Notes under the pieces: model-generated
What the model saw: only the letters and a program-made list of their open reading frames with translations
The model's database searches: none
What the model was told of the DNA's origin: nothing
Part shown: positions 1,003 through 43,721 of the stretch, one piece after another
How the letters are laid out: the number at the start of each line of letters is the position of its first letter
How positions within the stretch are numbered: position 1 is the first letter of the stretch
Source of the DNA: a virus
Lineage: Duplodnaviria > Caudoviricetes
Reading direction: 5' to 3' (one strand)
IMG/VR virus record: IMGVR_UViG_3300020034_000012
Coordinates: 1,962 to 65,961 of that record
Length of the DNA: 64,000 nt
Made by a program: the position numbers and the translations under genes

Positions 1003-2505
1003 TCAGCTCTTCAGATCGGTGCGCTTCTTCAGCACGACTGCAACGGCCTGCGCCTGCGTCTTGCGTGCACCCATCAAGCAATCGATCGTCATCAGCTCAG
1101 CGCGGCTGAACTGCGACATATCAATCACCTCATTGCCTGGCGTGTGCTGCGCTCCACCTGCCGCAGCGGGCGTGGTGGTGGACTGACGCTGCCCGATGGG
1201 AACCACCTGCGTGGCGTAGATCTGTTCAGCGCGCGCACGGTTCTGCGTGAATGCCCAGATGGCGTTATCACGCTGGTCTGGCATGACGTGACCGCTTGCG
1301 ATCCGCTCATCCACCAGCTGCGCGATCGCCTGCTTCTTCTCTTCAGCGCGCTCTGCTTCCAGCGCATCAAGGCGCTGCTTCATGCGCTCGATGGTTGCCT
1401 TATCGTTGTCACGCTCAAGCTGGTCCAGCGTCAGACCTGTTGGCGCTGTAGCCACTGGCGCCACCACTGCGGGTGCCGCTGCTGGCGTGGACAATACAAC
1501 TGGCGCTGCTGCTGGTGCCGCTGGCTGCGCCGCTTCGGGTTTCTTCTCAACGGTCATGGTGCGTGTTGCCTCTGCTGGCGTGCCATCACGTTTCACTGTC
1601 TTCTGCAGCGCGTTGACGATCATGTCTTTCATGTCCATCAACGCAGCGATCGTCTGTGACTTGTCTAAACCCGCCGCATCAGCGAACAGGTTTAGGAGCG
1701 CGTTCCCATCCGCTTCACTGCCATCACCCAGCGCTGCATCTGCAACGTTGGGATCTGCCGCAGCTGGTGGCGGCGGACCCGGTGCGGCGGGTGGCGGTGG
1801 TGCTGCCAGCTGCTTGTCTTCTTCCTTCGGAGGGAAGGGCGGCGGGTGCGCTGGTGGGTGCGGCTGCTGTGGCGGACCCTTGGGTTCTGCGCTCTGTTGC
1901 GCATGCTGCGGGTCAGCCGGTGGCTGCTTGTCTTTGTCGCTCTGCGGCGGTGGCGGCGGGAAGTTCAGCGCCTTCCACGTCAGTGCGATCTTGTGCTGCC
2001 CATCCAGGAACGGGTTGTTAGTCAACGCTACAGACAGAAGCTCTGCACCGATGACGTCCCCTGACTTCCGATCGATGGACTCAAAGTCCACCACTGGCGA
2101 GCAATAGGCGTACTCACCATCGCGAATCATCTGCGCTGCGCGGGGTGTCCAATCGACGTAAGCCCACAGCTCAGTGCCATTGTTCCGCAGCTCCATCCGC
2201 TTGACCCAGCCGCTTGCTGGCTTCGGTCCGGACGTCGATGGATTGAAGCTATCGTGTTCGTAATCCCAGGGAATCGGGTTCGATTGCGCGCTGAAGTTCT
2301 TGAGGATCTGCGTGAACGAATCGCGCGTAAACTCAAACTCACCGGAGTGATGGCCGCGCCATTCACCCAGCATCGCAACGTGCGCCCATCCACTGTTGGT
2401 GCCTGCGTCAAGCTGCGCGTCCTTCAATGCGATGAACGTGCGTAGGCATTTGGCCTTACGCCCCGTTACGTCCACCGCATACGCTGGCAACGCACCGTCA
2501 AACAT
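1003..2505 (-). CDS. Mu-like prohead protease with scaffold domain
   Basis: DYEH, PASGW, LWAYVDWT, GEYAYCSPV, SVALTNNPFL motifs; Pro-rich linker and helical C-terminal region. Confidence 0.9.
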   Translation of the reverse strand: MFDGALPAYAVDVTGRKAKCLRTFIALKDAQLDAGTNSGWAHVAMLGEWRGHHSGEFEFTRDSFTQILKNFSAQSNPIPWDYEHDSFNPSTSGPKPASGWVKRMELRNNGTELWAYVDWTPRAAQMIRDGEYAYCSPVVDFESIDRKSGDVIGAELLSVALTNNPFLDGQHKIALTWKALNFPPPPPQSDKDKQPPADPQHAQQSAEPKGPPQQPHPPAHPPPFPPKEEDKQLAAPPPPAAPGPPPPAAADPNVADAALGDGSEADGNALLNLFADAAGLDKSQTIAALMDMKDMIVNALQKTVKRDGTPAEATRTMTVEKKPEAAQPAAPAAAPVVLSTPAAAPAVVAPVATAPTGLTLDQLERDNDKATIERMKQRLDALEAERAEEKKQAIAQLVDERIASGHVMPDQRDNAIWAFTQNRARAEQIYATQVVPIGQRQSTTTPAAAGGAQHTPGNEVIDMSQFSRAELMTIDCLMGARKTQAQAVAVVLKKRTDLKS

Positions 2506-2873
2506 CAGGCGATGTGTCCCTGTGATCGCAACACGCGTTCGATGCGCGTCAGTCGATCTTCGGTGCTCAGCTTCTCATTAGGGTCAGCAGCCTTTACGCC
2601 TGCTGCTTCATTCGCCTTGCGCGCGTTCTCATCTTCCGCAGCCTTCTCTTCAGGCGAAGGCATGAACATCACGCCTTCAGTGTTCGGCTTGATGATGACC
2701 GCGGGATCGTTGGTCGGCGTTTGTTCCGCCGCAGCTTTGGCAGTCGGATCGATCGGAGGACTGTCGAAGTCCTTCAACCGTGCGGCAGGGTCCGCACCTT
2801 CCTGCGTGCCAATGCCAACGATAGGCGCTGGCGAAGCACCCTCTGGTAGATCGGTTTTCTTGCCGAAGGCCAT
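2505..2873 (-). CDS. Hypothetical protein, head operon
   Basis: 122 aa ORF whose stop overlaps the protease start; directly downstream of a repeated promoter-like motif. Confidence 0.7.
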   Translation of the reverse strand: MAFGKKTDLPEGASPAPIVGIGTQEGADPAARLKDFDSPPIDPTAKAAAEQTPTNDPAVIIKPNTEGVMFMPSPEEKAAEDENARKANEAAGVKAADPNEKLSTEDRLTRIERVLRSQGHIA

Positions 2874-2896
2874 AGCGTGCTGAAGCTGACAGCTGC

Positions 2897-9872: not shown

Positions 9873-10231
9873 GGCCGCACCACTTCCTTGCTTGGGTCCC
9901 CGTCCTCTCTGCGCCGTCCACTGGTGGGGTGTCGATGCCATCCGACTGGCGCATCGCCTTCCCCTGTCCACACCTGCGCTGCTGCGATCGCTGCCACGGG
10001 TGTGGGGTAGCAATACGCATCGATGATGCATCGCGAGTGCTGTTCGCTGTAGCACAAGCGCGCCTTGCCGAACGTCATCGGGTAGACGCATACCTCGTAA
10101 CCGTCTGGCAACTCACGCCAGTAGAGTGCGCCTTCTTCCATGCGCTCAGTGGCCGCGCTGGCCTGGTTTGCAACGCGGTGGCCGAATGTCGCGGCCATGA
10201 AATCAATCAGTGCTTTTGCTACCTGGGTCAT
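9869..10231 (-). CDS. Hypothetical phage protein
   Basis: YCY..AIAAAQVW.GEGDAPVGWHRHP.SGRRR; ATGA-coupled to next gene. Confidence 0.65.
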   Translation of the reverse strand: MTQVAKALIDFMAATFGHRVANQASAATERMEEGALYWRELPDGYEVCVYPMTFGKARLCYSEQHSRCIIDAYCYPTPVAAIAAAQVWTGEGDAPVGWHRHPTSGRRREDGDPSKEVVRP

Positions 10232-34796: not shown

Positions 34797-35002
34797 AGCC
34801 ACCCGCAGAACCTCCGTCGACACTATGCCGCTGCGTGTCCAGTCCTAGCTGGGGGTGGACGCGCAGCCACAGCGCTGACTGTTCATCGGATGAGCGCGCA
34901 GGGTTCGGACCCGCATGCAAGCACTGCGGACACAGCTACTGCAAGTGTTCGTGGTGGAAGCGGTGGCGCACGGGCAACACGCATAAGCGGGATGGGTGGT
35001 AG
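34793..35002 (+). CDS. Small Cys/Trp-rich ORF between the RecD2 halves
   Basis: GTGA overlap with upstream stop; ends 2 nt before next ATG; CRC, CKHCGH.YCKC. Confidence 0.5.
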   Translation: MKPPAEPPSTLCRCVSSPSWGWTRSHSADCSSDERAGFGPACKHCGHSYCKCSWWKRWRTGNTHKRDGW

Positions 35003-35004
35003 CG

Positions 35005-36198
35005 ATGACCATCGAGCTAGACCCGTCGCAGCTGATGGCTGTTCGGTTGATGGTGGAGTCACGCTTCGCCTGCGTGACCGGTGGCGCTGGCGTGGGTAAG
35101 ACCACGTCCCTACGCTTTGCCATCCAAGAGATTGACGCCAAGGGGTTGCCGTTCGAACTGGCAGCGCCGACTGGCAAAGCGGCCAAGCGCATGACTGAAG
35201 CGACGGGCCAGCCAGCGCAGACGATCCACCGCTTGCTGCAGTGGCGTAATGGTCCGCAGCTAAACCATCACTTCCCGATAGACACCAGCGTGGTCATCAT
35301 AGATGAGGCGTCGATGCTGGACATCGTCCTACTGCAGTTCCTGCTGGACGCGATTGACCCGACGCAGACGCGGCTGATTCTGATTGGCGATGCGAACCAG
35401 CTTCCCCCGGTGGGACCTGGCTGCCCGTTCGGTGAGCTGTGCGAGTCAGGCTTAGTCCCCGTCGCACGCTTGACCAAACTCCACCGCGCAGCAGAGCTGA
35501 GCTGGATCAATCAGGCCAGTCAGGCCGTGCTGCAGCGCAAGCTTCCTGACCTGCACACTGAGCGCGATGATTTCCGCTTCATCCCAGTGGCCACGTCCGC
35601 TGACATCGCACCCGCCATCACCGAACTGTTCACGCGTGCGACGTCCGAAGATCTGCAGGTGCTCATCCCGCAGAACCCGCGCACTGGTGGCGTGACCGAA
35701 GCGAACCTGGCGCTACAGGCGCGCATCAATCCACCGCGTGAAGGCGAAACGCATTACCGCAGACGGGACAAGACTGAGCTGCGCATCCATGACCGGGTCA
35801 TCCAAACGAAAAACGATTACCAGCTGCAGATTTTCAACGGTGAAGTGGGGACGGTAGTGGACGTGGCCACAGACAAAGTCACGGTCAACTTCATGGACCG
35901 TGGGGATGTGGGCTACACGCCGCAGCAGGCAGGCGCACTGCAGCTGGCGTATGCATTGACCGTGCACAAGATGCAGGGTTCGGAGTTTCCGTGGATCTGT
36001 TTTGTGTGCCACTCGACACACACGCATCTGCTTTCGCCGCAACTGATCTACACTGCGATCACCCGGGGCAAGAAAGGCGTAATCATCGTGGGTGATGAGA
36101 AGGGAATGCAGCAGGGTTTGCGAATGAAAAACCCACCACGCCGCAACTCAGGACTCATTCAACGGCTGACCAAACACGTGGACTTCATCGCAGCATGA
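35005..36198 (+). CDS. RecD2-like SF1B helicase core
   Basis: GGAGVGKTT, APTGKAAKR, DEASM, GDANQLPPVG, AYALTVHKMQGSEF, YTAITR. Confidence 0.93.
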   Translation: MTIELDPSQLMAVRLMVESRFACVTGGAGVGKTTSLRFAIQEIDAKGLPFELAAPTGKAAKRMTEATGQPAQTIHRLLQWRNGPQLNHHFPIDTSVVIIDEASMLDIVLLQFLLDAIDPTQTRLILIGDANQLPPVGPGCPFGELCESGLVPVARLTKLHRAAELSWINQASQAVLQRKLPDLHTERDDFRFIPVATSADIAPAITELFTRATSEDLQVLIPQNPRTGGVTEANLALQARINPPREGETHYRRRDKTELRIHDRVIQTKNDYQLQIFNGEVGTVVDVATDKVTVNFMDRGDVGYTPQQAGALQLAYALTVHKMQGSEFPWICFVCHSTHTHLLSPQLIYTAITRGKKGVIIVGDEKGMQQGLRMKNPPRRNSGLIQRLTKHVDFIAA

Positions 36199-36547: not shown

Positions 36548-36973
36548 ATGTCCAAAGATGCAACGGCAGTAAGCGACGATGAGGGGGCGCGTTCGGCCAC
36601 GCGCTTCATCGAACATGTAGCCGATGGCCAATGCGCTGCGGATCTGTCGCACGCAATCCATAAGCTGGGCTTGCGCCTGCTTGCTGAAACCAAGCAGCGC
36701 GCGGACAAGTGCACGGGCGAAGTTACGCTCAGGCTGAAGTTCATTTCAGAGCCTAGTGGGATCGTCGGCGTGGGCTACGAAGTCAACAGTAAGGAACCGA
36801 AGTCCAAGACCAGCGGTTCAGTCTTCTGGCTGACCAAAGGTGGCAACTTCAGCACGGACAATCCGCGGCAGCAGTCATTGCCAGGCATCCGCGAAGTGAA
36901 ACGTAACGATGAAGTCCGTGACCTGGGTGCAGTCGACCCAGCCAATGACAACGCTGAACCTAGGAGCGTGTGA
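36548..36973 (+). CDS. YfdP-like protein (partner of DUF2303)
   Basis: GEVTLRL, FWLTKGGNFSTDNPRQ; directly upstream of the DUF2303 gene. Confidence 0.6.
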   Translation: MSKDATAVSDDEGARSATRFIEHVADGQCAADLSHAIHKLGLRLLAETKQRADKCTGEVTLRLKFISEPSGIVGVGYEVNSKEPKSKTSGSVFWLTKGGNFSTDNPRQQSLPGIREVKRNDEVRDLGAVDPANDNAEPRSV

Positions 36974-36974
36974 C

Positions 36975-37838
36975 ATGGCCAGCTACTCAGAGGCAACCAC
37001 GGATGCAGCTGCCATCATCCAAGCCACGCTAGACAACTCAGCGGTGGATGTAATTGATCTGGACCGCACGAAGATCGTATCGGTCCCCGATGGTCAAGAG
37101 CTGAAGTCACTCAAGCCATTTCTGGATGAGTACCTTGAACGCCCAGAGCGCATCAAAGGTTGCGCGCACCTGTCCACGCTGGCCAGCTTCATCGATCACA
37201 TCAAGCGGTTCAAGAAACCCAGCTCTGCAGTCTTCGTGGGTGAGAAGAGTCTGCAGGCCATCTATGACTATCACGATGATGTGCCTGCGTTCTGCGTGCA
37301 CCGCGCTAGGTACATGTTCCCCTGGTCACCCGAGTGGCTGGCGTGGGAAGGCATCGACGGGGATCCACGTGGACAGCTGGGGTTCGCACAGTTCCTTGAG
37401 GACCACATCAGTGACATCACCACTGCGGAAGACGAGGACAGCAAACGTCTGTTCGGGGAGCTGGGCTTCAAGCTTGCAACGCCCGCGCAGATGCTGGCCA
37501 TGTCGCGTGGCTTGACCGTGCGTGTGGATTCAGAAGCCACAGCCAAAGCCAACCTGAGCACCGGCGAGATTGAAGTAGCGTACAAGGAATCGCACACGGA
37601 CACGGCGGGTCAGCCGCTCAAGGTCCCCGGTGGGTTCCTGCTTCTCATCCCTGCGTTCAAGCGTGGGGTGCTCTACCGCATCCCCGTGCGCCTGCGCTAC
37701 CGCGTGCAACACGGCAAAGTGCTGTGGACCACGCTGATGCTGCGTAAGGATGCAGTGGTGCAGGATGCCATCAAGGATGCGTGCGAGCGCGTCATTGAAG
37801 AGACTCAGGCGCCGCTCTTCCACGGTGACCCGGAATAA
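36975..37838 (+). CDS. DUF2303 / YfdQ family protein
   Basis: AIYDYH, HRA, SPEWLAW, FAQFLED, IPAFKRG, RLRYR. Confidence 0.82.
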   Translation: MASYSEATTDAAAIIQATLDNSAVDVIDLDRTKIVSVPDGQELKSLKPFLDEYLERPERIKGCAHLSTLASFIDHIKRFKKPSSAVFVGEKSLQAIYDYHDDVPAFCVHRARYMFPWSPEWLAWEGIDGDPRGQLGFAQFLEDHISDITTAEDEDSKRLFGELGFKLATPAQMLAMSRGLTVRVDSEATAKANLSTGEIEVAYKESHTDTAGQPLKVPGGFLLLIPAFKRGVLYRIPVRLRYRVQHGKVLWTTLMLRKDAVVQDAIKDACERVIEETQAPLFHGDPE

Positions 37839-39399: not shown

Positions 39400-39465
39400 C
39401 TGCCTAGCCTTGCAAGAATGCAAGGCGTGAATCAACTGGCATGGTATGACACAGGGGTAGAGCCG

Positions 39466-39684
39466 ATGACGCCAGCCAACGATAATGACGATCCCATTGT
39501 GGCTGAGCTGCGCTCGCTTCAAGCGGATTGCGAGGCGTTCGCTAAGCGGATGAACGAACGGCTGGCCAAGCTTCAGGCGCGCGTGGCAGGGAAGCCTACG
39601 CGCGCGAAAGCTGGCGCACCTACGCCAGAGGACTGGGATATTGTTTACCGCGCCAAGGCTCGCAAGCAGCGGCGCATGGGGTAG
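39466..39684 (+). CDS. Small basic protein upstream of integrase (possible directionality factor)
   Basis: Ends 3 nt before int; basic C-terminus; function inferred from position only. Confidence 0.55.
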   Translation: MTPANDNDDPIVAELRSLQADCEAFAKRMNERLAKLQARVAGKPTRAKAGAPTPEDWDIVYRAKARKQRRMG

Positions 39685-39687
39685 TTC

Positions 39688-40965
39688 ATGGGACGCAAGC
39701 TAAAGGGATACACGCGCAGCCACAATGGCGTCATCGAAGTCTGGGTCGGTGGTGACTACATCAGTTCAGTCACAGACCCTGACCAGGCTGAGCGCGTAAA
39801 GAATGCTGCAGTCCAGGACCGCACAGGCACTGCGCCGTCCATCTTCTCTGTTTACGCGAAGGCGTGGTGGATAGCGCGTGAAGAGCTGGCGCAGAAGCTT
39901 GGCCGTGTGCGTGCATTCGAAAAAGAGAAAAGCGTGTGGGACTTCCACGTTACCGGTGCGAAGTTCTTTCACGCACCGCTGAAGAGCCTCAAGCCGAAGA
40001 TGATTCAGCAGTGGATCGGTGTGATGGGAAAGAAGCACGCGATGCACGCCATCACCTGCAAGGGTAAGGACGGCAAGCCGAAGACGATTCTGCGTGACAC
40101 GGGACGTCCGCTCGCAAGGCGCGTAATCGAACAGGCTTTGAAATACGTCAAGCAAGTTCTGGATGCGGCGATCGTCGATGGCAAGATGAGCGGCAACGTC
40201 AACCCTGCGCGGCTGGTACGCTTACCGCGTGAAGGGGTGCCGCAGACCGATGGCCAGCTCATCGTGCACTTGTTAGTGGAAGAGATTGAGCAACTGCTAG
40301 CGATGGACTTGCCGCCACTGCAGCGCGCTGTGTTCACCGTCGCCATCTATACGGGGCTGCGTGATGATGAGCTGTGGGGATTGCGCTGGGTGGATGTCAT
40401 CCTAGATGGAGCGCAGCCAGAGATTCGCGTGCGTCGCAGCTACGCTGGTCCGTGCAAGACAAAACACTCCATCCGGGATGTGCCGCTATTCGATGAAGCG
40501 ATCGATGCGCTCAGAGAGTGGCGCGCTGTTCGGTCTGCGTTAGCAGCGCCTGTCATCGGGGACGCGCTGGTCTTCCCGGCTGAGTCCGGTGGATGCCACC
40601 ACGAAAGCTTCACGGCTGGATGGCGAGACAAGTACCGCAAAGTAAATGGCAAGGTGGTGCGGTCCCCTGGCTGGCGCGCGCGCGCTGGCATCCGTGAAGA
40701 AGTGGACTTCAAAGACATGCGCCACACATGCGGCTGCCACCTGGTGCAGGGGACGTGGACCGATGGGGAATCTATGCCCCTGGGTGCAGTGAAGACGTGG
40801 CTAGGCCACAGCTCTGAAGCCACCACAGAGAAGCACTACGCGGCGTTCACATCGGACAATCTGCATTCGCGTTTGCGGGGACGTCGCAACCAGAAACCAC
40901 GTGCGGATAAAGCGGGAATAAAGCGGGAGGGTAAAACGACCATACGTGCTAAGTCTGCGGATTGA
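39688..40965 (+). CDS. int: Tyrosine integrase
   Basis: YTGLRDDEL (R), KTK (K), KDMRHT, LGHSS, KHYA (Y). Confidence 0.93.
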   Translation: MGRKLKGYTRSHNGVIEVWVGGDYISSVTDPDQAERVKNAAVQDRTGTAPSIFSVYAKAWWIAREELAQKLGRVRAFEKEKSVWDFHVTGAKFFHAPLKSLKPKMIQQWIGVMGKKHAMHAITCKGKDGKPKTILRDTGRPLARRVIEQALKYVKQVLDAAIVDGKMSGNVNPARLVRLPREGVPQTDGQLIVHLLVEEIEQLLAMDLPPLQRAVFTVAIYTGLRDDELWGLRWVDVILDGAQPEIRVRRSYAGPCKTKHSIRDVPLFDEAIDALREWRAVRSALAAPVIGDALVFPAESGGCHHESFTAGWRDKYRKVNGKVVRSPGWRARAGIREEVDFKDMRHTCGCHLVQGTWTDGESMPLGAVKTWLGHSSEATTEKHYAAFTSDNLHSRLRGRRNQKPRADKAGIKREGKTTIRAKSAD

Positions 40966-41073
40966 TTGAAGTTGCACCCATAGCTCAGCCGGAAGAGCAG
41001 CGGCCTTCTAAGCAGCCGCTACGCTGAATGATTTCATAGACTTAGATGAGCATCCCGCTCTATTCCGCTTTAT
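40907..41073. other. attP: arm-type repeats flanking a tRNA-derived core
   Basis: ATAAAGCGGGA twice (40907-40928); inverted variants at 41053-41073; CTAAGTCT/AGACTTAG inverted pair; AGCGGC/GCCGCT symmetry around CTTCTAAGCA. Confidence 0.8.
40974..41013 (+). tRNA. 5-prime fragment of tRNA-Arg(UCU); att core, not a full tRNA
   Basis: GCACCCA TA GCTC AGCCGGAA GAGC A GCGGC CT-TCT-AA GC; no T-arm or 3-prime acceptor strand follows. Confidence 0.82.
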
Positions 41074-41103
41074 AAAACCGCAGCACCCGGACAGGGGGTC
41101 CGC

Positions 41104-41448
41104 ATGGACTCGCGAGACAACGCACCGCCTAGGCCAGCCATCTGCTTGCACGCAATCGGGGACGATGACGCGCCCCGTCCCCTGATGCTGGTCATCACCC
41201 CGGACTCATTCGCCGTGTACGAAACGCTGCCCCTGAACTGCGTGGCGAATGGGACCGCAGCTTGGGAAGTCCATGGCCCACTTGGATCGGTGGTGCTGCG
41301 TGGTAGCGGGGACTTCCCGCTGACCCGTGAACTTGAACGCGAGATTGTGCAGTGTTGGTATGAGCACTACGTCAGTAGCGATGGCGCAGACCCCGTGCAC
41401 ACGTTCAGCAAGTACACGCGCAGCACTCCACCGGATGGGATGCACTGA
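41104..41448 (+). CDS. Hypothetical protein
   Basis: TGATG-coupled to next gene. Confidence 0.55.
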   Translation: MDSRDNAPPRPAICLHAIGDDDAPRPLMLVITPDSFAVYETLPLNCVANGTAAWEVHGPLGSVVLRGSGDFPLTRELEREIVQCWYEHYVSSDGADPVHTFSKYTRSTPPDGMH

Positions 41449-41828
41449 TGAGCAACTCGCCACCGAAGTTCAGTCCTGAAGAAGCGGTTGCGTGGGAAGC
41501 GTTCTGCGCTGGTGTGCCTGACTACGTGGCTGCAGTGGCTCGCAAGTATCCGTGTGATCGGTGCTACCGCTCGACGGAAAACCCGGGCTTCCACTACTGG
41601 ATCTATTCGTACGAAGAAAACGCAGACTGGGTCTGCACGCTCAAGCTCATCCACGGTTTGGACAGCACGCTCCCCGGGACCTACACGTTCGGTCAGCCCC
41701 CGGACCAGCTGCTTCCATGCGACTGCGGCAAGTGGGAAATGCCTAGCAAAGAAATCTGCGATGCGGTGGCGGCAAGCGCGCGTGCAGAAGGCGATCGCAT
41801 GCGTGCGAAAAACAAGCGGCGGAACTGA
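41448..41828 (+). CDS. Hypothetical protein
   Basis: HYWIYSYEE, PCDCGKW. Confidence 0.6.
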   Translation: MSNSPPKFSPEEAVAWEAFCAGVPDYVAAVARKYPCDRCYRSTENPGFHYWIYSYEENADWVCTLKLIHGLDSTLPGTYTFGQPPDQLLPCDCGKWEMPSKEICDAVAASARAEGDRMRAKNKRRN

Positions 41829-41830
41829 CC

Positions 41831-42061
41831 ATGGAAAAGACCATCGTTCCCCGCTGGCTGCTGCTCAAGGTGATGGAGCAAAACATGAAGCGGCCACCGG
41901 ACGTCTGCACGTTCTGCGGCAATGGCGGCAAGCTGGAAGCGCACACGGTTACGTTCACGCGTGACAACCACAGCGAGATAGATGGCAAGTATGACGTGCG
42001 CGTGTGCGAGCGGTGCGAAGCCATCATGTGGAACCACCCTAGCTTCATGCTTGAGCAATGA
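41831..42061 (+). CDS. Zn-ribbon protein
   Basis: CTFC..VCERC. Confidence 0.55.
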   Translation: MEKTIVPRWLLLKVMEQNMKRPPDVCTFCGNGGKLEAHTVTFTRDNHSEIDGKYDVRVCERCEAIMWNHPSFMLEQ

Positions 42062-42438
42062 AGCTGTGCGTGACCGGTGGCCGCAAGTACAGCGATCGCT
42101 CCACAGCGTTTGAAGTTCTAGACTCGACGCACGAACTACTGAGCATCGATGCGCTGGCGCATGGCGATGCACCCGGTGCGGATGCGCTGGCCGATGAGTG
42201 GTGTCTGCTGCGTGGCGTCCCGTGCGAACGCTTCGCCGCTGAGTGGACGCGCTACCGCAAGCCCGGACGTAAGAACCCAGCTGGCGCCATCCGCAACCGG
42301 CTGATGCTGAGCACGTTCAGACCGGACGTGCTCATCGCGTTCCCCGGTGGCAGCGGCACTGCGGACTGCGTAGCTACAGCGCGCACACTTGGCATCACCG
42401 TGCTTGACCTGCGCGAAAGGCTTAGGGATTCAGGCTGA
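42058..42438 (+). CDS. SLOG superfamily (YspA-like/DUF2493) protein
   Basis: VTGGRKY, HGDAPGAD, AGAIRN..ML, AFPGGSGTAD. Confidence 0.88.
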   Translation: MKLCVTGGRKYSDRSTAFEVLDSTHELLSIDALAHGDAPGADALADEWCLLRGVPCERFAAEWTRYRKPGRKNPAGAIRNRLMLSTFRPDVLIAFPGGSGTADCVATARTLGITVLDLRERLRDSG

Positions 42439-42489: not shown

Positions 42490-43017
42490 ATGACTACTGC
42501 AACTAACCGAGTGCACCCGTTCGAGCAAGCTGGCCTAGGCATCGCACCGTTCAAGCTGGTGGGTACGTTCGTATCCAAGTACCAGGCGATCCCGGGTGAC
42601 CCGAACTGCCCGATCCAACCGGGGTCATCGTGTGACTACTGCGCGCAGGGCATCATGCTGGTGTGCGTCATCCGCGGTGCGGACGGTCGTGACTTCAAGG
42701 TGGGCTATGACTGTGCGGCGAAGACCACGCGCGATGCGGCCACCACCGCGGACCAGAAGCTAGCCGCTGCCATCGACGGTGCGCGCCGCAAGCTGAACCG
42801 AAAGAAGGCGCACGTGCGCGCAGCGGATAAGGCCGCTGAGCTTGCGATGCTTTTGGATTCAGAGTTTGCGCGTGTGCGCCTCGCTAGCCTGCCGCACCCA
42901 AACAAGTGGCGCGCCAGCGAAGGTGACACCTTGCTGCAGTGGGCAATGTGGATGCTGAACAAAGCGGGCGCAGCTGGCCAAGCGCGCGCGCTCAAGGCGG
43001 TCAAGGCTGCGCTGTGA
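42490..43017 (+). CDS. Zn-binding hypothetical protein
   Basis: CDYC..FKVGYDC; directly after the promoter. Confidence 0.75.
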   Translation: MTTATNRVHPFEQAGLGIAPFKLVGTFVSKYQAIPGDPNCPIQPGSSCDYCAQGIMLVCVIRGADGRDFKVGYDCAAKTTRDAATTADQKLAAAIDGARRKLNRKKAHVRAADKAAELAMLLDSEFARVRLASLPHPNKWRASEGDTLLQWAMWMLNKAGAAGQARALKAVKAAL

Positions 43018-43721
43018 ACCACTCAATCAGAACCTGGCAGCGCACAGCGAATGAGGCGCGCGCTGCCTACGTGCAGCTGCGGCGGGAAGCGTTGACCGCT
43101 GGCAGCCAGCACCGTGCGCACCGCACCGGGGTCAACCGGCTGGCGCTGGAAGATGCGATCGGTGGAGCCATCATGGCGCGCCATCGAGTGCTTCAGGTGC
43201 AGGCGCAGCTGGCCCGTGCACACGCGCAACACACCTTGAAAACGCGCAAGCCAGCCGCAAGTTCAGGACCTATGGAACACACACCAGAATCGCAACCCCC
43301 CGCAGCTGCACCCACCGAAGCGTCCCCCTACGCAACGATGGCTAGTGACCTTGCCCGTAAGCTGGCTGGCCTGGCTGCGCTGGCGAGTGACGCAGACCCA
43401 TACGGCAACGCTGGCCATGACACAGCCCTATGCGATTGCAGCGCGTGCACTAACTGGCGCCACGCAGTGGCGTCCCACGCAGCTCCAGCCCCGGAGTCGC
43501 CAGCAGAACCCGAGCCTACCCCAGGGCAGAAGAAGCACGGCGGCTACCGTCCTGGCAGCGGCAGCAAGCGCAGACCGGTGCAGAAGAAGAAGCAGAGCAA
43601 GCCCGCGTATGTGCACCTGACCCCAAAAGAAAAGCGGGAAGTGGAAGCGAAGGCCTACAAAGCAGACCTGAGCATCAGCGCCTACATCCGGAAACGATTA
43701 GGGTTTCCCACGGCCAGCTGA
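43014..43721 (+). CDS. Protein with C-terminal ribbon-helix-helix domain
   Basis: HGGYRPGSG motif then YVHLTPKEKREVEAKAYKADLSISAYIR; start uncertain (43014 or 43272). Confidence 0.7.
   Translation: MNHSIRTWQRTANEARAAYVQLRREALTAGSQHRAHRTGVNRLALEDAIGGAIMARHRVLQVQAQLARAHAQHTLKTRKPAASSGPMEHTPESQPPAAAPTEASPYATMASDLARKLAGLAALASDADPYGNAGHDTALCDCSACTNWRHAVASHAAPAPESPAEPEPTPGQKKHGGYRPGSGSKRRPVQKKKQSKPAYVHLTPKEKREVEAKAYKADLSISAYIRKRLGFPTAS

Follow-up and report, generated by a model that had tools for sequence, protein, structure and literature searches.

Integrative elements that target transfer RNA (tRNA) genes carry in most cases the 3' part of the gene, as the initial annotation of the DNA studied here had stated. 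This agrees with Table 1 of Islander, in which 3760 of 3919 islands hold a 3' tDNA fragment and 159 a 5' fragment (PMC4383910), and with a review (PMC8371274). Recombination of the 5'-distal kind has been called "considerably less frequent" in a paper that has Zhao & Williams 2002 among the works cited (PMC6563490). For the archaeal pTN3-like integrases the attB is the 5' half of a tRNA gene and the tRNA is expressed from the integrase promoter, an arrangement that the same review describes as "seldomly encountered in bacteria" (PMC8371274). Here we describe a bacteriophage locus of this uncommon kind. It lies in a stretch of 64,000 nucleotides (hereafter the window), corresponding to bases 1962-65961 of the IMG/VR virus record IMGVR_UViG_3300020034_000012, which has 65,961 bp, is classed as linear and is estimated as complete by CheckV. 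The region 40907-41073 of the window, at the 3' end of a tyrosine integrase gene (int) and directly behind it, is very probably the attP site of a temperate phage, with a probable host in the Polyangiales (Myxococcota), that integrates in a tRNA-Arg(UCU) gene in the reversed, 5'-type configuration. This reading of the site, already proposed in the initial annotation, is supported by an exact match to a host gene, by a geometry conserved in related integrases and by an attR-like junction in one of these relatives. From the same evidence we infer the integration of this particular phage.

Anatomy of the attP region

The elements of the locus are as follows:

39688..40965, + strand: tyrosine integrase gene int, an open reading frame (ORF) of 425 amino acids (aa) with stop codon TGA at 40963-40965; its last ~60 nt hold the two left arm-type sites.
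40907-40917 and 40918-40928, + strand: two tandem arm-type repeats of the P arm, ATAAAGCGGGA twice (repeat family D5), both inside int and ending 77 nt before the anticodon loop.
40949..40956, + strand: left copy of a second inverted pair, CTAAGTCT, an inverted 8-mer found by script and part of I1.
40974..41013, + strand: positions 1-40 of tRNA-Arg(UCU), the block of attP/attB identity.
41005..41011, + strand: anticodon loop CTTCTAA, the proposed overlap (strand-exchange) region.
41038..41045, + strand: right copy of the second inverted pair, AGACTTAG, an inverted 8-mer found by script.
41053-41063 and 41063-41073, - strand: two inverted arm-type repeats of the P' arm, TCCCGCTCTAT and TTCCGCTTTAT (inverted repeats I3, I9, I12 and I13), beginning 42 nt past the loop.

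The tRNA half is separated from the int stop codon by the 8-nt spacer TTGAAGTT, and both its position and its end just past the anticodon loop were as first annotated. It contains, in this order, the acceptor strand GCACCCA, the dinucleotide TA, the D arm, A26, the anticodon-stem strand GCGGC, the loop CTTCTAA with the anticodon TCT, and finally G39 and C40. Beyond 41013 any resemblance to a tRNA is lost. The block of attP/attB identity ends, at position 40, in the anticodon stem-loop, a 7-nt loop with flanking dyad symmetry. The loop is flanked by GCGGC and GCAGC, which form four of five pairs; the copy of the 3' strand of the anticodon stem is imperfect in the window, and a longer dyad (I14) is also found there. 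When the site was checked for a complete tRNA gene none appeared: ARAGORN called no complete tRNA in the 64-kb window, nor in the rest of the 65,961-bp record (its first 2100 bases were scanned), and Rfam at E<=10 gave no tRNA match at the att region of the window.

The arm-type repeats that bracket this half, two of them inside the 3' end of int, were likewise recovered by repeat search and by motif enrichment. Each of the inverted copies matches ATAAAGCGGGA at 10 of 11 positions, as read by eye. The exact 9-mer ATAAAGCGG has three occurrences in 64 kb, every one at the att site, and when up to one mismatch was allowed it gave 15 matches in comparison to 6.6 +/- 2.7 in shuffled sequences, none of 100 shuffles reaching 15. 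As in a lambda-type attP, arm-type sites are present on both sides of the core and are distinct from the core sequence. The second inverted pair, CTAAGTCT and AGACTTAG, flanks the core, each copy being placed inward of the arm sites and outward of the tRNA segment, and similar TAAGT/ACTTAG pairs were found in two of the relatives described below (L045 and L080). This pair may be a candidate site for an accessory protein or an additional site for Int.

Match to a host gene and co-occurrence in soil

The 40-mer had also been put forward as a handle for finding the host, and it served well for this. Among genomes representing 185,579 species (one each) it had one exact match, in a metagenome-assembled genome (MAG) of the Polyangiales (G001, contig L003). 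The match, at L003:10001-10040, falls in a tRNA-Arg(tct) gene of 74 nt called by ARAGORN at 10001-10074, and the gene starts at the first matched base. Phage and host are identical at 40 of 40 bases from tRNA +1 to position 40, with flanks that are wholly different on both sides. As in other 5'-type sites, the element holds the tRNA from +1 to the crossover, and the identity does not extend upstream of +1. This MAG, which is fragmented and has 10.4 Mb, yielded a single tRNA-Arg(tct) gene; the other similar matches in it were to Arg(cct).

The same gene gives signs of another element. On contig L003 the complete gene is followed by CCGCACCAACT twice in tandem and by the contig end (L003:10075-10163), and a second contig of the MAG (L068; G001:C1057, reverse strand 1500-1545) contains positions 32-75 of that tRNA, 100% identical, with unrelated DNA on both sides. 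The Arg-TCT gene of the MAG thus looks like the site of a conventional, 3'-type element with its junction at C32/anticodon loop.

Logan contigs and unitigs (k = 31) of four soil runs, X1 to X4, were compared over positions 39600-42400 of the window. In runs X1-X3, which come from two samples, one of which possibly gave rise to the record, the branch points of the unitigs fall precisely on 40974 and 41013, the limits of the shared node. The second branch entering this node consists of 30 nt identical to the upstream flank of the tRNA gene in the MAG. The presence of the host flank in runs that contain the phage indicates that the phage and this host allele co-occur. The depths in run X2 (7.64 for the left phage branch, 4.11 for the left host branch, 10.9 for the shared node, 5.7 for the P' arm and 4.81 for another right branch) are within the noise of a pure mixture of attP and attB; since unitigs break at both ends of the 40-mer, this mixture and one of attL and attR are indistinguishable in them. 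The loose ends behind 41013 are a mix of the tRNAs of several organisms (agreement 0.75).

Closest integrase relatives and an attR-like junction

Viral and metagenome contigs were scanned for related integrases, and the sequence after int was read, with the aid of ARAGORN, in 16 distinct contigs bearing a relative; two further, weak ones (L055 and L056) were left out. L043, L044 and L106 are the contigs of L004, L005 and L045, respectively. Among the five closest full-length relatives (46-51% identity), four carry a co-oriented 5' half of a tRNA directly after int and the fifth a 3' half. The tRNA parts recognised were:

L004: 5' half of Lys-TTT, co-oriented, right after int.
L038: 5' half of Lys-TTT, co-oriented, right after int.
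L042: 5' half of Thr-CGT, co-oriented, right after int; repeats on the right, no clear pair on the left.
L045: 5' half of Arg-TCT through about position 42, co-oriented, right after int.
L005 (int 51-53% identical): 3' half of Arg-TCT, co-oriented, on the far (P') arm.
L054 (int 38%; 2459-2541): atypical 83-nt tRNA-Arg(acg) called by ARAGORN right after int, with 24.4 bits in Rfam, below the gathering score of 29.
L040 (43%, partial int): reverse-complemented 5' half beyond the core.
L046 and L049 (37-39%): conventional reverse-complemented 3' part adjoining int.

No tRNA part was recognised within 240 nt in L047, L048 and L050-L053, although L047 has a weak partial Rfam match further out. The element of L054 is probably also a co-oriented 5' half, of Arg-ACG; it could be seen as a 5' part with chance acceptor pairing or as an unusual complete gene. 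Global Rfam alignment of the halves gave 21-32 bits, and the two Lys-TTT halves were marginally over the gathering score of 29, at places where ARAGORN calls no gene. Rfam was for this reason useful here solely to show that the tRNA of contig L041, treated below, is a true one.

When the sequences were aligned on the anticodon loop, the window, L045, L038, L043 and L044 presented the same spacing, with the left tandem arm sites ending ~76-79 nt before the loop and the right inverted ones beginning ~40-42 nt after it. That one slot holds the 5' halves of three different tRNAs, at this fixed spacing, argues for a designed site rather than an accidental layout. A quick maximum-likelihood tree of 44 integrase segments, with SH-aLRT support only, was also built; L040 and L041 (too short), L053 (a duplicate of L052 there), L055 and L056 (weak) were left out of it. 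The window and L045, L005, L004, L038 and L042 formed one group with support 87, L054 was placed elsewhere, and the conventional L046 was sister to the six in a clade of seven with support 100. Judged from these sequences, the co-oriented tRNA layout marks one integrase subclade of six members, with the 5' half on the P arm in five of them and the 3' half on the P' arm in L005. The restoring segment accordingly sits on either arm within one close integrase group.

Viral contigs were additionally scanned for a 20-mer of this tRNA, which gave 47 loci. A complete tRNA gene was present in 44 of these, one was cut by a contig end and two were 5' halves (L106 and L080); the exact 40-mer had no match in the viral contigs. 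In L080 (1500-1700) the 5' half of tRNA-Arg(TCT) is flanked by GAAAAACCCACG arm repeats and the integrase, 36% identical and encoded at 1666-2892 (- strand), is on the far side of the core and on the opposite strand, which represents another 5'-type geometry in this integrase family.

The junction that integration of such an element would produce has a counterpart in L041, a metagenome contig of 1168 nt. It contains the C-terminal part of an int with 49% identity to that of the window, followed by tandem arm sites AAAGCGGA (two copies) and, after a spacer of 46 nt, by a tRNA-Arg(tct) that is complete and co-oriented (391-466). This tRNA was called by ARAGORN, scores 66.5 bits in Rfam and has as its first 40 nt the 40-mer of the window. 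To the right of it the arm motif has no copy anywhere on the contig, even at one mismatch, and the flank contains an XRE-type helix-turn-helix gene on the other strand. We read L041 as the attR-like junction of a 5'-type element from a relative, made up of a P arm, a phage 5' half and a host 3' half. In its tRNA, G1 and T72 form a wobble pair at the outer end of the acceptor stem, which may be the mark of a chimera of phage 5' and host 3' halves or an error at coverage 1. A search of 401 order-level genomes did not reveal the host of L041; the closest tRNA had 91% identity. Two genomes of this sample (G397 and G123) are unpublished, and none of the conclusions draws on them.

Conventional relatives in the Polyangiales

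In the order of the MAG, homologues of int at E<=1e-30 were detected in 46 of 301 sampled genomes, with 33-46% identity, and 30 order-level loci were fetched and read. In 21 of the 30, a complete tRNA is convergent with int and its 3' end lies directly against that of int (Gly-CCC, Arg-CCT/ACG/TCG/TCT/CCG, Val and Thr-CGT). In L025 the convergent tRNA is ~400 nt away from int, in L023 the tRNA is upstream of int, and in L020 there is only a reverse-complemented 3' part of Arg-TCT, in an attP-like arrangement. The six remaining loci (L009, L016, L017, L030, L032 and L036) are without a tRNA; in L016, L030 and L032 the contig ends within ~125 nt of int. A second element of the MAG itself, at L006 (G001:C401) 1-360, shows tRNA-Arg(CCG), ~45 nt, tandem GTGGAAGGTT repeats and a convergent integrase with 35% identity, and this layout is a clean case of the conventional arrangement of the integrase family.

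Integration model and proposed crossover site

In the model that we favour, a lambda-style tyrosine integrase would bind the arm-type repeats on both sides and strands would be exchanged in or beside the anticodon loop. The int-proximal P arm would carry tRNA positions 1-40 co-oriented with int. The predicted attR would thus consist of int, the 8-nt spacer, the phage 5' half and the host 3' half, that is, a sequence-perfect tRNA gene for a matching host. The predicted attL would contain the host promoter, host positions 1-40 and then the phage sequence from 41014 onward, with the P' arm and the + strand genes that begin at 41104. As the phage carries the 5' part, the restored gene would have only phage DNA upstream and would lose its native promoter. 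Transcription of its tRNA would have to come from phage DNA; read-through from int or from an upstream phage promoter would be the simplest source, and RNase P would trim the 5' end.

Some observations weigh against this interpretation. The attL and attR of this phage itself were not seen in the soil runs, in which unitigs of k = 31 cannot phase a 40-nt repeat. The tRNA gene of the MAG is already occupied by another element, and phage and MAG may share their soils of origin, so that their co-occurrence would not be independent. Contig L041 has coverage 1, its int part needs one frameshift to read through, and its right flank with the XRE-type gene could in principle be phage DNA. In the Polyangiales, a co-oriented complete tRNA after int was present in none of the 30 loci read, none of which is 5'-type, and no close homologue of int (E<=1e-65) was detected in 401 sampled genomes of the phylum. 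Finally, a consensus scan of 40600-41300 found no sigma-70-like promoter upstream of the tRNA half.

The initial annotation had placed the crossover in the anticodon loop, and this placement gains support from three lines that point to the same bases. First, the identity blocks extend from position 1 to 40-42 in the 5'-type sites, from ~28 to the 3' end in L005 and from 32 to 75 in the conventional element of the MAG, and the intersection of the three is the anticodon loop plus the first two bases of the 3' stem strand. Second, the arm sites keep a constant spacing relative to the loop. Third, a loop crossover is the usual one: an anticodon-loop sublocation class of tRNA-targeting integrases is attributed to Williams 2002. 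A 7-bp overlap equal to the anticodon loop is indeed given as the norm for this class in the review (PMC8371274). From these lines we infer a crossover in the loop. It is improbable, in comparison, that strands are exchanged elsewhere in the 40 nt of identity, for instance in the D arm; any crossover within an identical block yields the same products and sequence alone cannot place it, but the blocks of the 5'-type attP sites, of L005 and of the MAG element (G001) meet only at the anticodon stem-loop, and both the spacing and the described norm point there as well.

Other explanations concern the site as a whole. The join at attP could be an artefact, if the sample had contained only lysogens and the assembly had bridged the 40-nt repeat wrongly. 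Two branches do enter the node of the 40-mer and at least two leave it, in a unitig graph from which the phasing is unreadable. However, inverted arm sites lie on both sides at the spacing of the family, which is the look expected of an attP, and the same layout is found in four relatives that were assembled independently. We consider this explanation very unlikely; if it were true, moreover, it would prove 5'-type integration rather than refute it.

Slightly less credible still is the possibility that the 40-mer has no role today, being the remnant of a phage tRNA gene in decay or the scar of a past imprecise excision, and that the functional core of attP is elsewhere. Complete tRNA-Arg(tct) genes are frequent in phage records, as the 44 of 47 viral loci with the 20-mer illustrate. 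Yet the fragment is found at a fixed distance between arm repeats whose exact 9-mer occurs nowhere else in the window, and relatives carry halves of different tRNAs in the same slot. Furthermore, identity to the host begins at +1 and ends just past the loop, and decay would not spare 40 of 40 bases and lose everything after position 40. The least probable explanation is tRNA-dependent lysogeny, in which the tRNA gene would not be rebuilt, a phage-encoded tRNA would compensate and the 40-mer would be incidental: the phenomenon exists in actinobacteriophages (PMC10865867), and the anticodon-stem 3' strand of the window is imperfect, but it is defined by a core of ~10 bp, in place of the 40-nt block starting exactly at tRNA +1 found here, and it needs a phage tRNA gene of the same isotype, of which ARAGORN finds none in the 65,961-bp record. 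With neither of these two features present the explanation can be discarded, and the junction of L041, moreover, has a complete tRNA. The favoured reading remains integration in tRNA-Arg(UCU) with the 5' part supplied by the phage.

Predicted expression of the restored tRNA

Co-transcription of the restored tRNA with int followed by processing by RNase P would be the most economical reading of the locus. The consensus scan also revealed no + strand terminator in the interval from the core to the ORF that follows at 41104. In L004, a TTGACA-N17-TAAATG element was seen by eye upstream of the tRNA half, and no comparable element is common to the other 5'-type sites. The conserved TAAGT motif was considered as a -10 box and rejected: it has an inverted partner beyond the core and is also present in the 3'-type L005, and so it is read as a candidate protein-binding site.

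After integration the promoter of the host tRNA would face the genes of the P' arm. It could then be proposed that the only tRNA-Arg(UCU) of the host depends on prophage transcription, from the int operon or an unrecognised phage promoter, tying AGA decoding and fitness to the prophage; that the strong host tRNA promoter, acting through the displaced 5' half, drives the P'-arm genes (41104 onward, including a SLOG/YspA-like protein) in an integration-dependent manner; and that the clade switches the restoring arm and, with it, between host-driven and phage-driven tRNA expression. Taken together as one proposal, we regard this as doubtful. AGA codons number 58 of 15,860 in a crude set of phage ORFs (4.9% of Arg codons), with no enrichment in any module, and 6 of 2868 in a 10-kb host sample, a comparison that is uninformative.

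Integrase gene and its surroundings

The product of int matched Pfam PF00589 (Phage_integrase) over residues 198-386 with E-value 1.9e-14 and 54.3 bits (cut-off 27.1), and PHROG phrog_1 "integrase" with 1.4e-36, this match beginning at residue 51. No Pfam domain was called over residues 1-197 of Int, where an N-terminal arm-binding domain would be sought. Residues R225, R345, H374 and Y384 are invariant in an alignment of three integrases, and we take them to stand where the catalytic Arg...Arg and C-terminal Tyr of tyrosine recombinases are placed.

The int gene is part of a co-directional + strand block, downstream of genes for a RecD-like helicase and a DUF2303 protein. On its 3' side there are small ORFs without known function, the next of them at 41104, and the genes of a YspA/SLOG-family protein and a NikA-like protein. 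The neighbours with a recognisable product are:

34996-36198: RecD-like superfamily 1 (SF1) helicase.
36909-37838: DUF2303 protein.
42058-42438: YspA/SLOG-family protein.
42939-43721: protein with a NikA-like ribbon-helix-helix C-terminus.

The int gene lies within a block of early or replication type rather than at the edge of a module. An ORF of 88 aa (39418-39684, + strand) ends 3 nt ahead of the int start and is an excisionase candidate by position; it had no PHROG match and its Pfam match was sub-threshold only. In soil run X4, a 66-kb contig of a relative phage is 95-99% alike from 41103 rightward (window 41103-42398 compared) but gives no alignment at >=90% in the region of int and attP. 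An exchange of the integration module as a cassette, bounded just to the right of attP, is suggested by this pattern.

Significance and comparison with known systems

The locus gives a concrete host link for an uncultured 66-kb soil phage, through tRNA-Arg(UCU) to a Polyangiales bacterium, and defines a small integrase subclade that as a rule has the 5'-type arrangement. This subclade, with the sister phage L005 among its members, offers a natural series on how the target, the orientation and the restoring segment of tRNA-targeting integrases change. With one detectable tRNA-Arg(UCU) in the host MAG, the transcription of the restored gene in a lysogen becomes a real question. In practical terms, the 40-nt attB and the compact attP-int cassette could be used as a tool for integration in this group of myxobacteria.

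The 5'-type arrangement is known but uncommon, and that of the window is itself not new. What the present analysis adds is the host assignment, the subclade of six members, the sister phage with the other half of the same tRNA and the attR-like junction of a relative. The conventional relatives in the Polyangiales share with the window the arm-type tandem repeats, tRNA targets that include Arg-TCT (L029 and L020) and a junction at the anticodon loop. In them, however, the element gives the 3' part and the host promoter is kept, whereas the tRNA of the window runs in the direction of int and it is the 5' part that the element supplies. The L005-type sister phage shares with the window the target, Arg-UCU, the direction of the loop with respect to int and the 77/42-nt arm spacing, and differs in carrying the 3' half on the P' arm, so that its restored gene would keep the host promoter.

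The 5'-fragment islands of Islander are alike in that the element holds the 5' part of the tRNA, the 5' end of the host gene is displaced and the restored gene stands on upstream DNA of the element. The present case is, in contrast, a free phage genome with an intact attP, and in its subclade six integrases share the co-oriented layout, five of them with a 5' half, for three tRNA identities. A paper by Zhao & Williams in 2002 (J Bacteriol 184:859) reportedly deals with reverse-orientation elements in bacterial tRNA genes.

The pTN3-like integrases of Thermococcales plasmids and viruses also use the 5' half of a tRNA gene and restore an uninterrupted tRNA. They are "suicidal" enzymes whose gene is split by integration, as the int(N)/int(C) passage of the review implies. 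In the window, on the contrary, the core lies 8 nt beyond the int stop codon, int stays intact and the host is bacterial. Finally, tRNA-dependent lysogeny, as presented by Guerrero-Bustamante & Hatfull 2024 (PMC10865867), resembles this locus in that arm sites accompany a tyrosine integrase, that the attB is located in a tRNA gene of single copy and that the viability of the lysogen would be tied to tRNA function supplied by the phage. Its own features are a core of ~10 bp, a tRNA that is not rebuilt and a whole phage tRNA; in the window, instead, the identity spans 40 nt, the tRNA gene is predicted to be rebuilt and the phage has no tRNA gene of its own.

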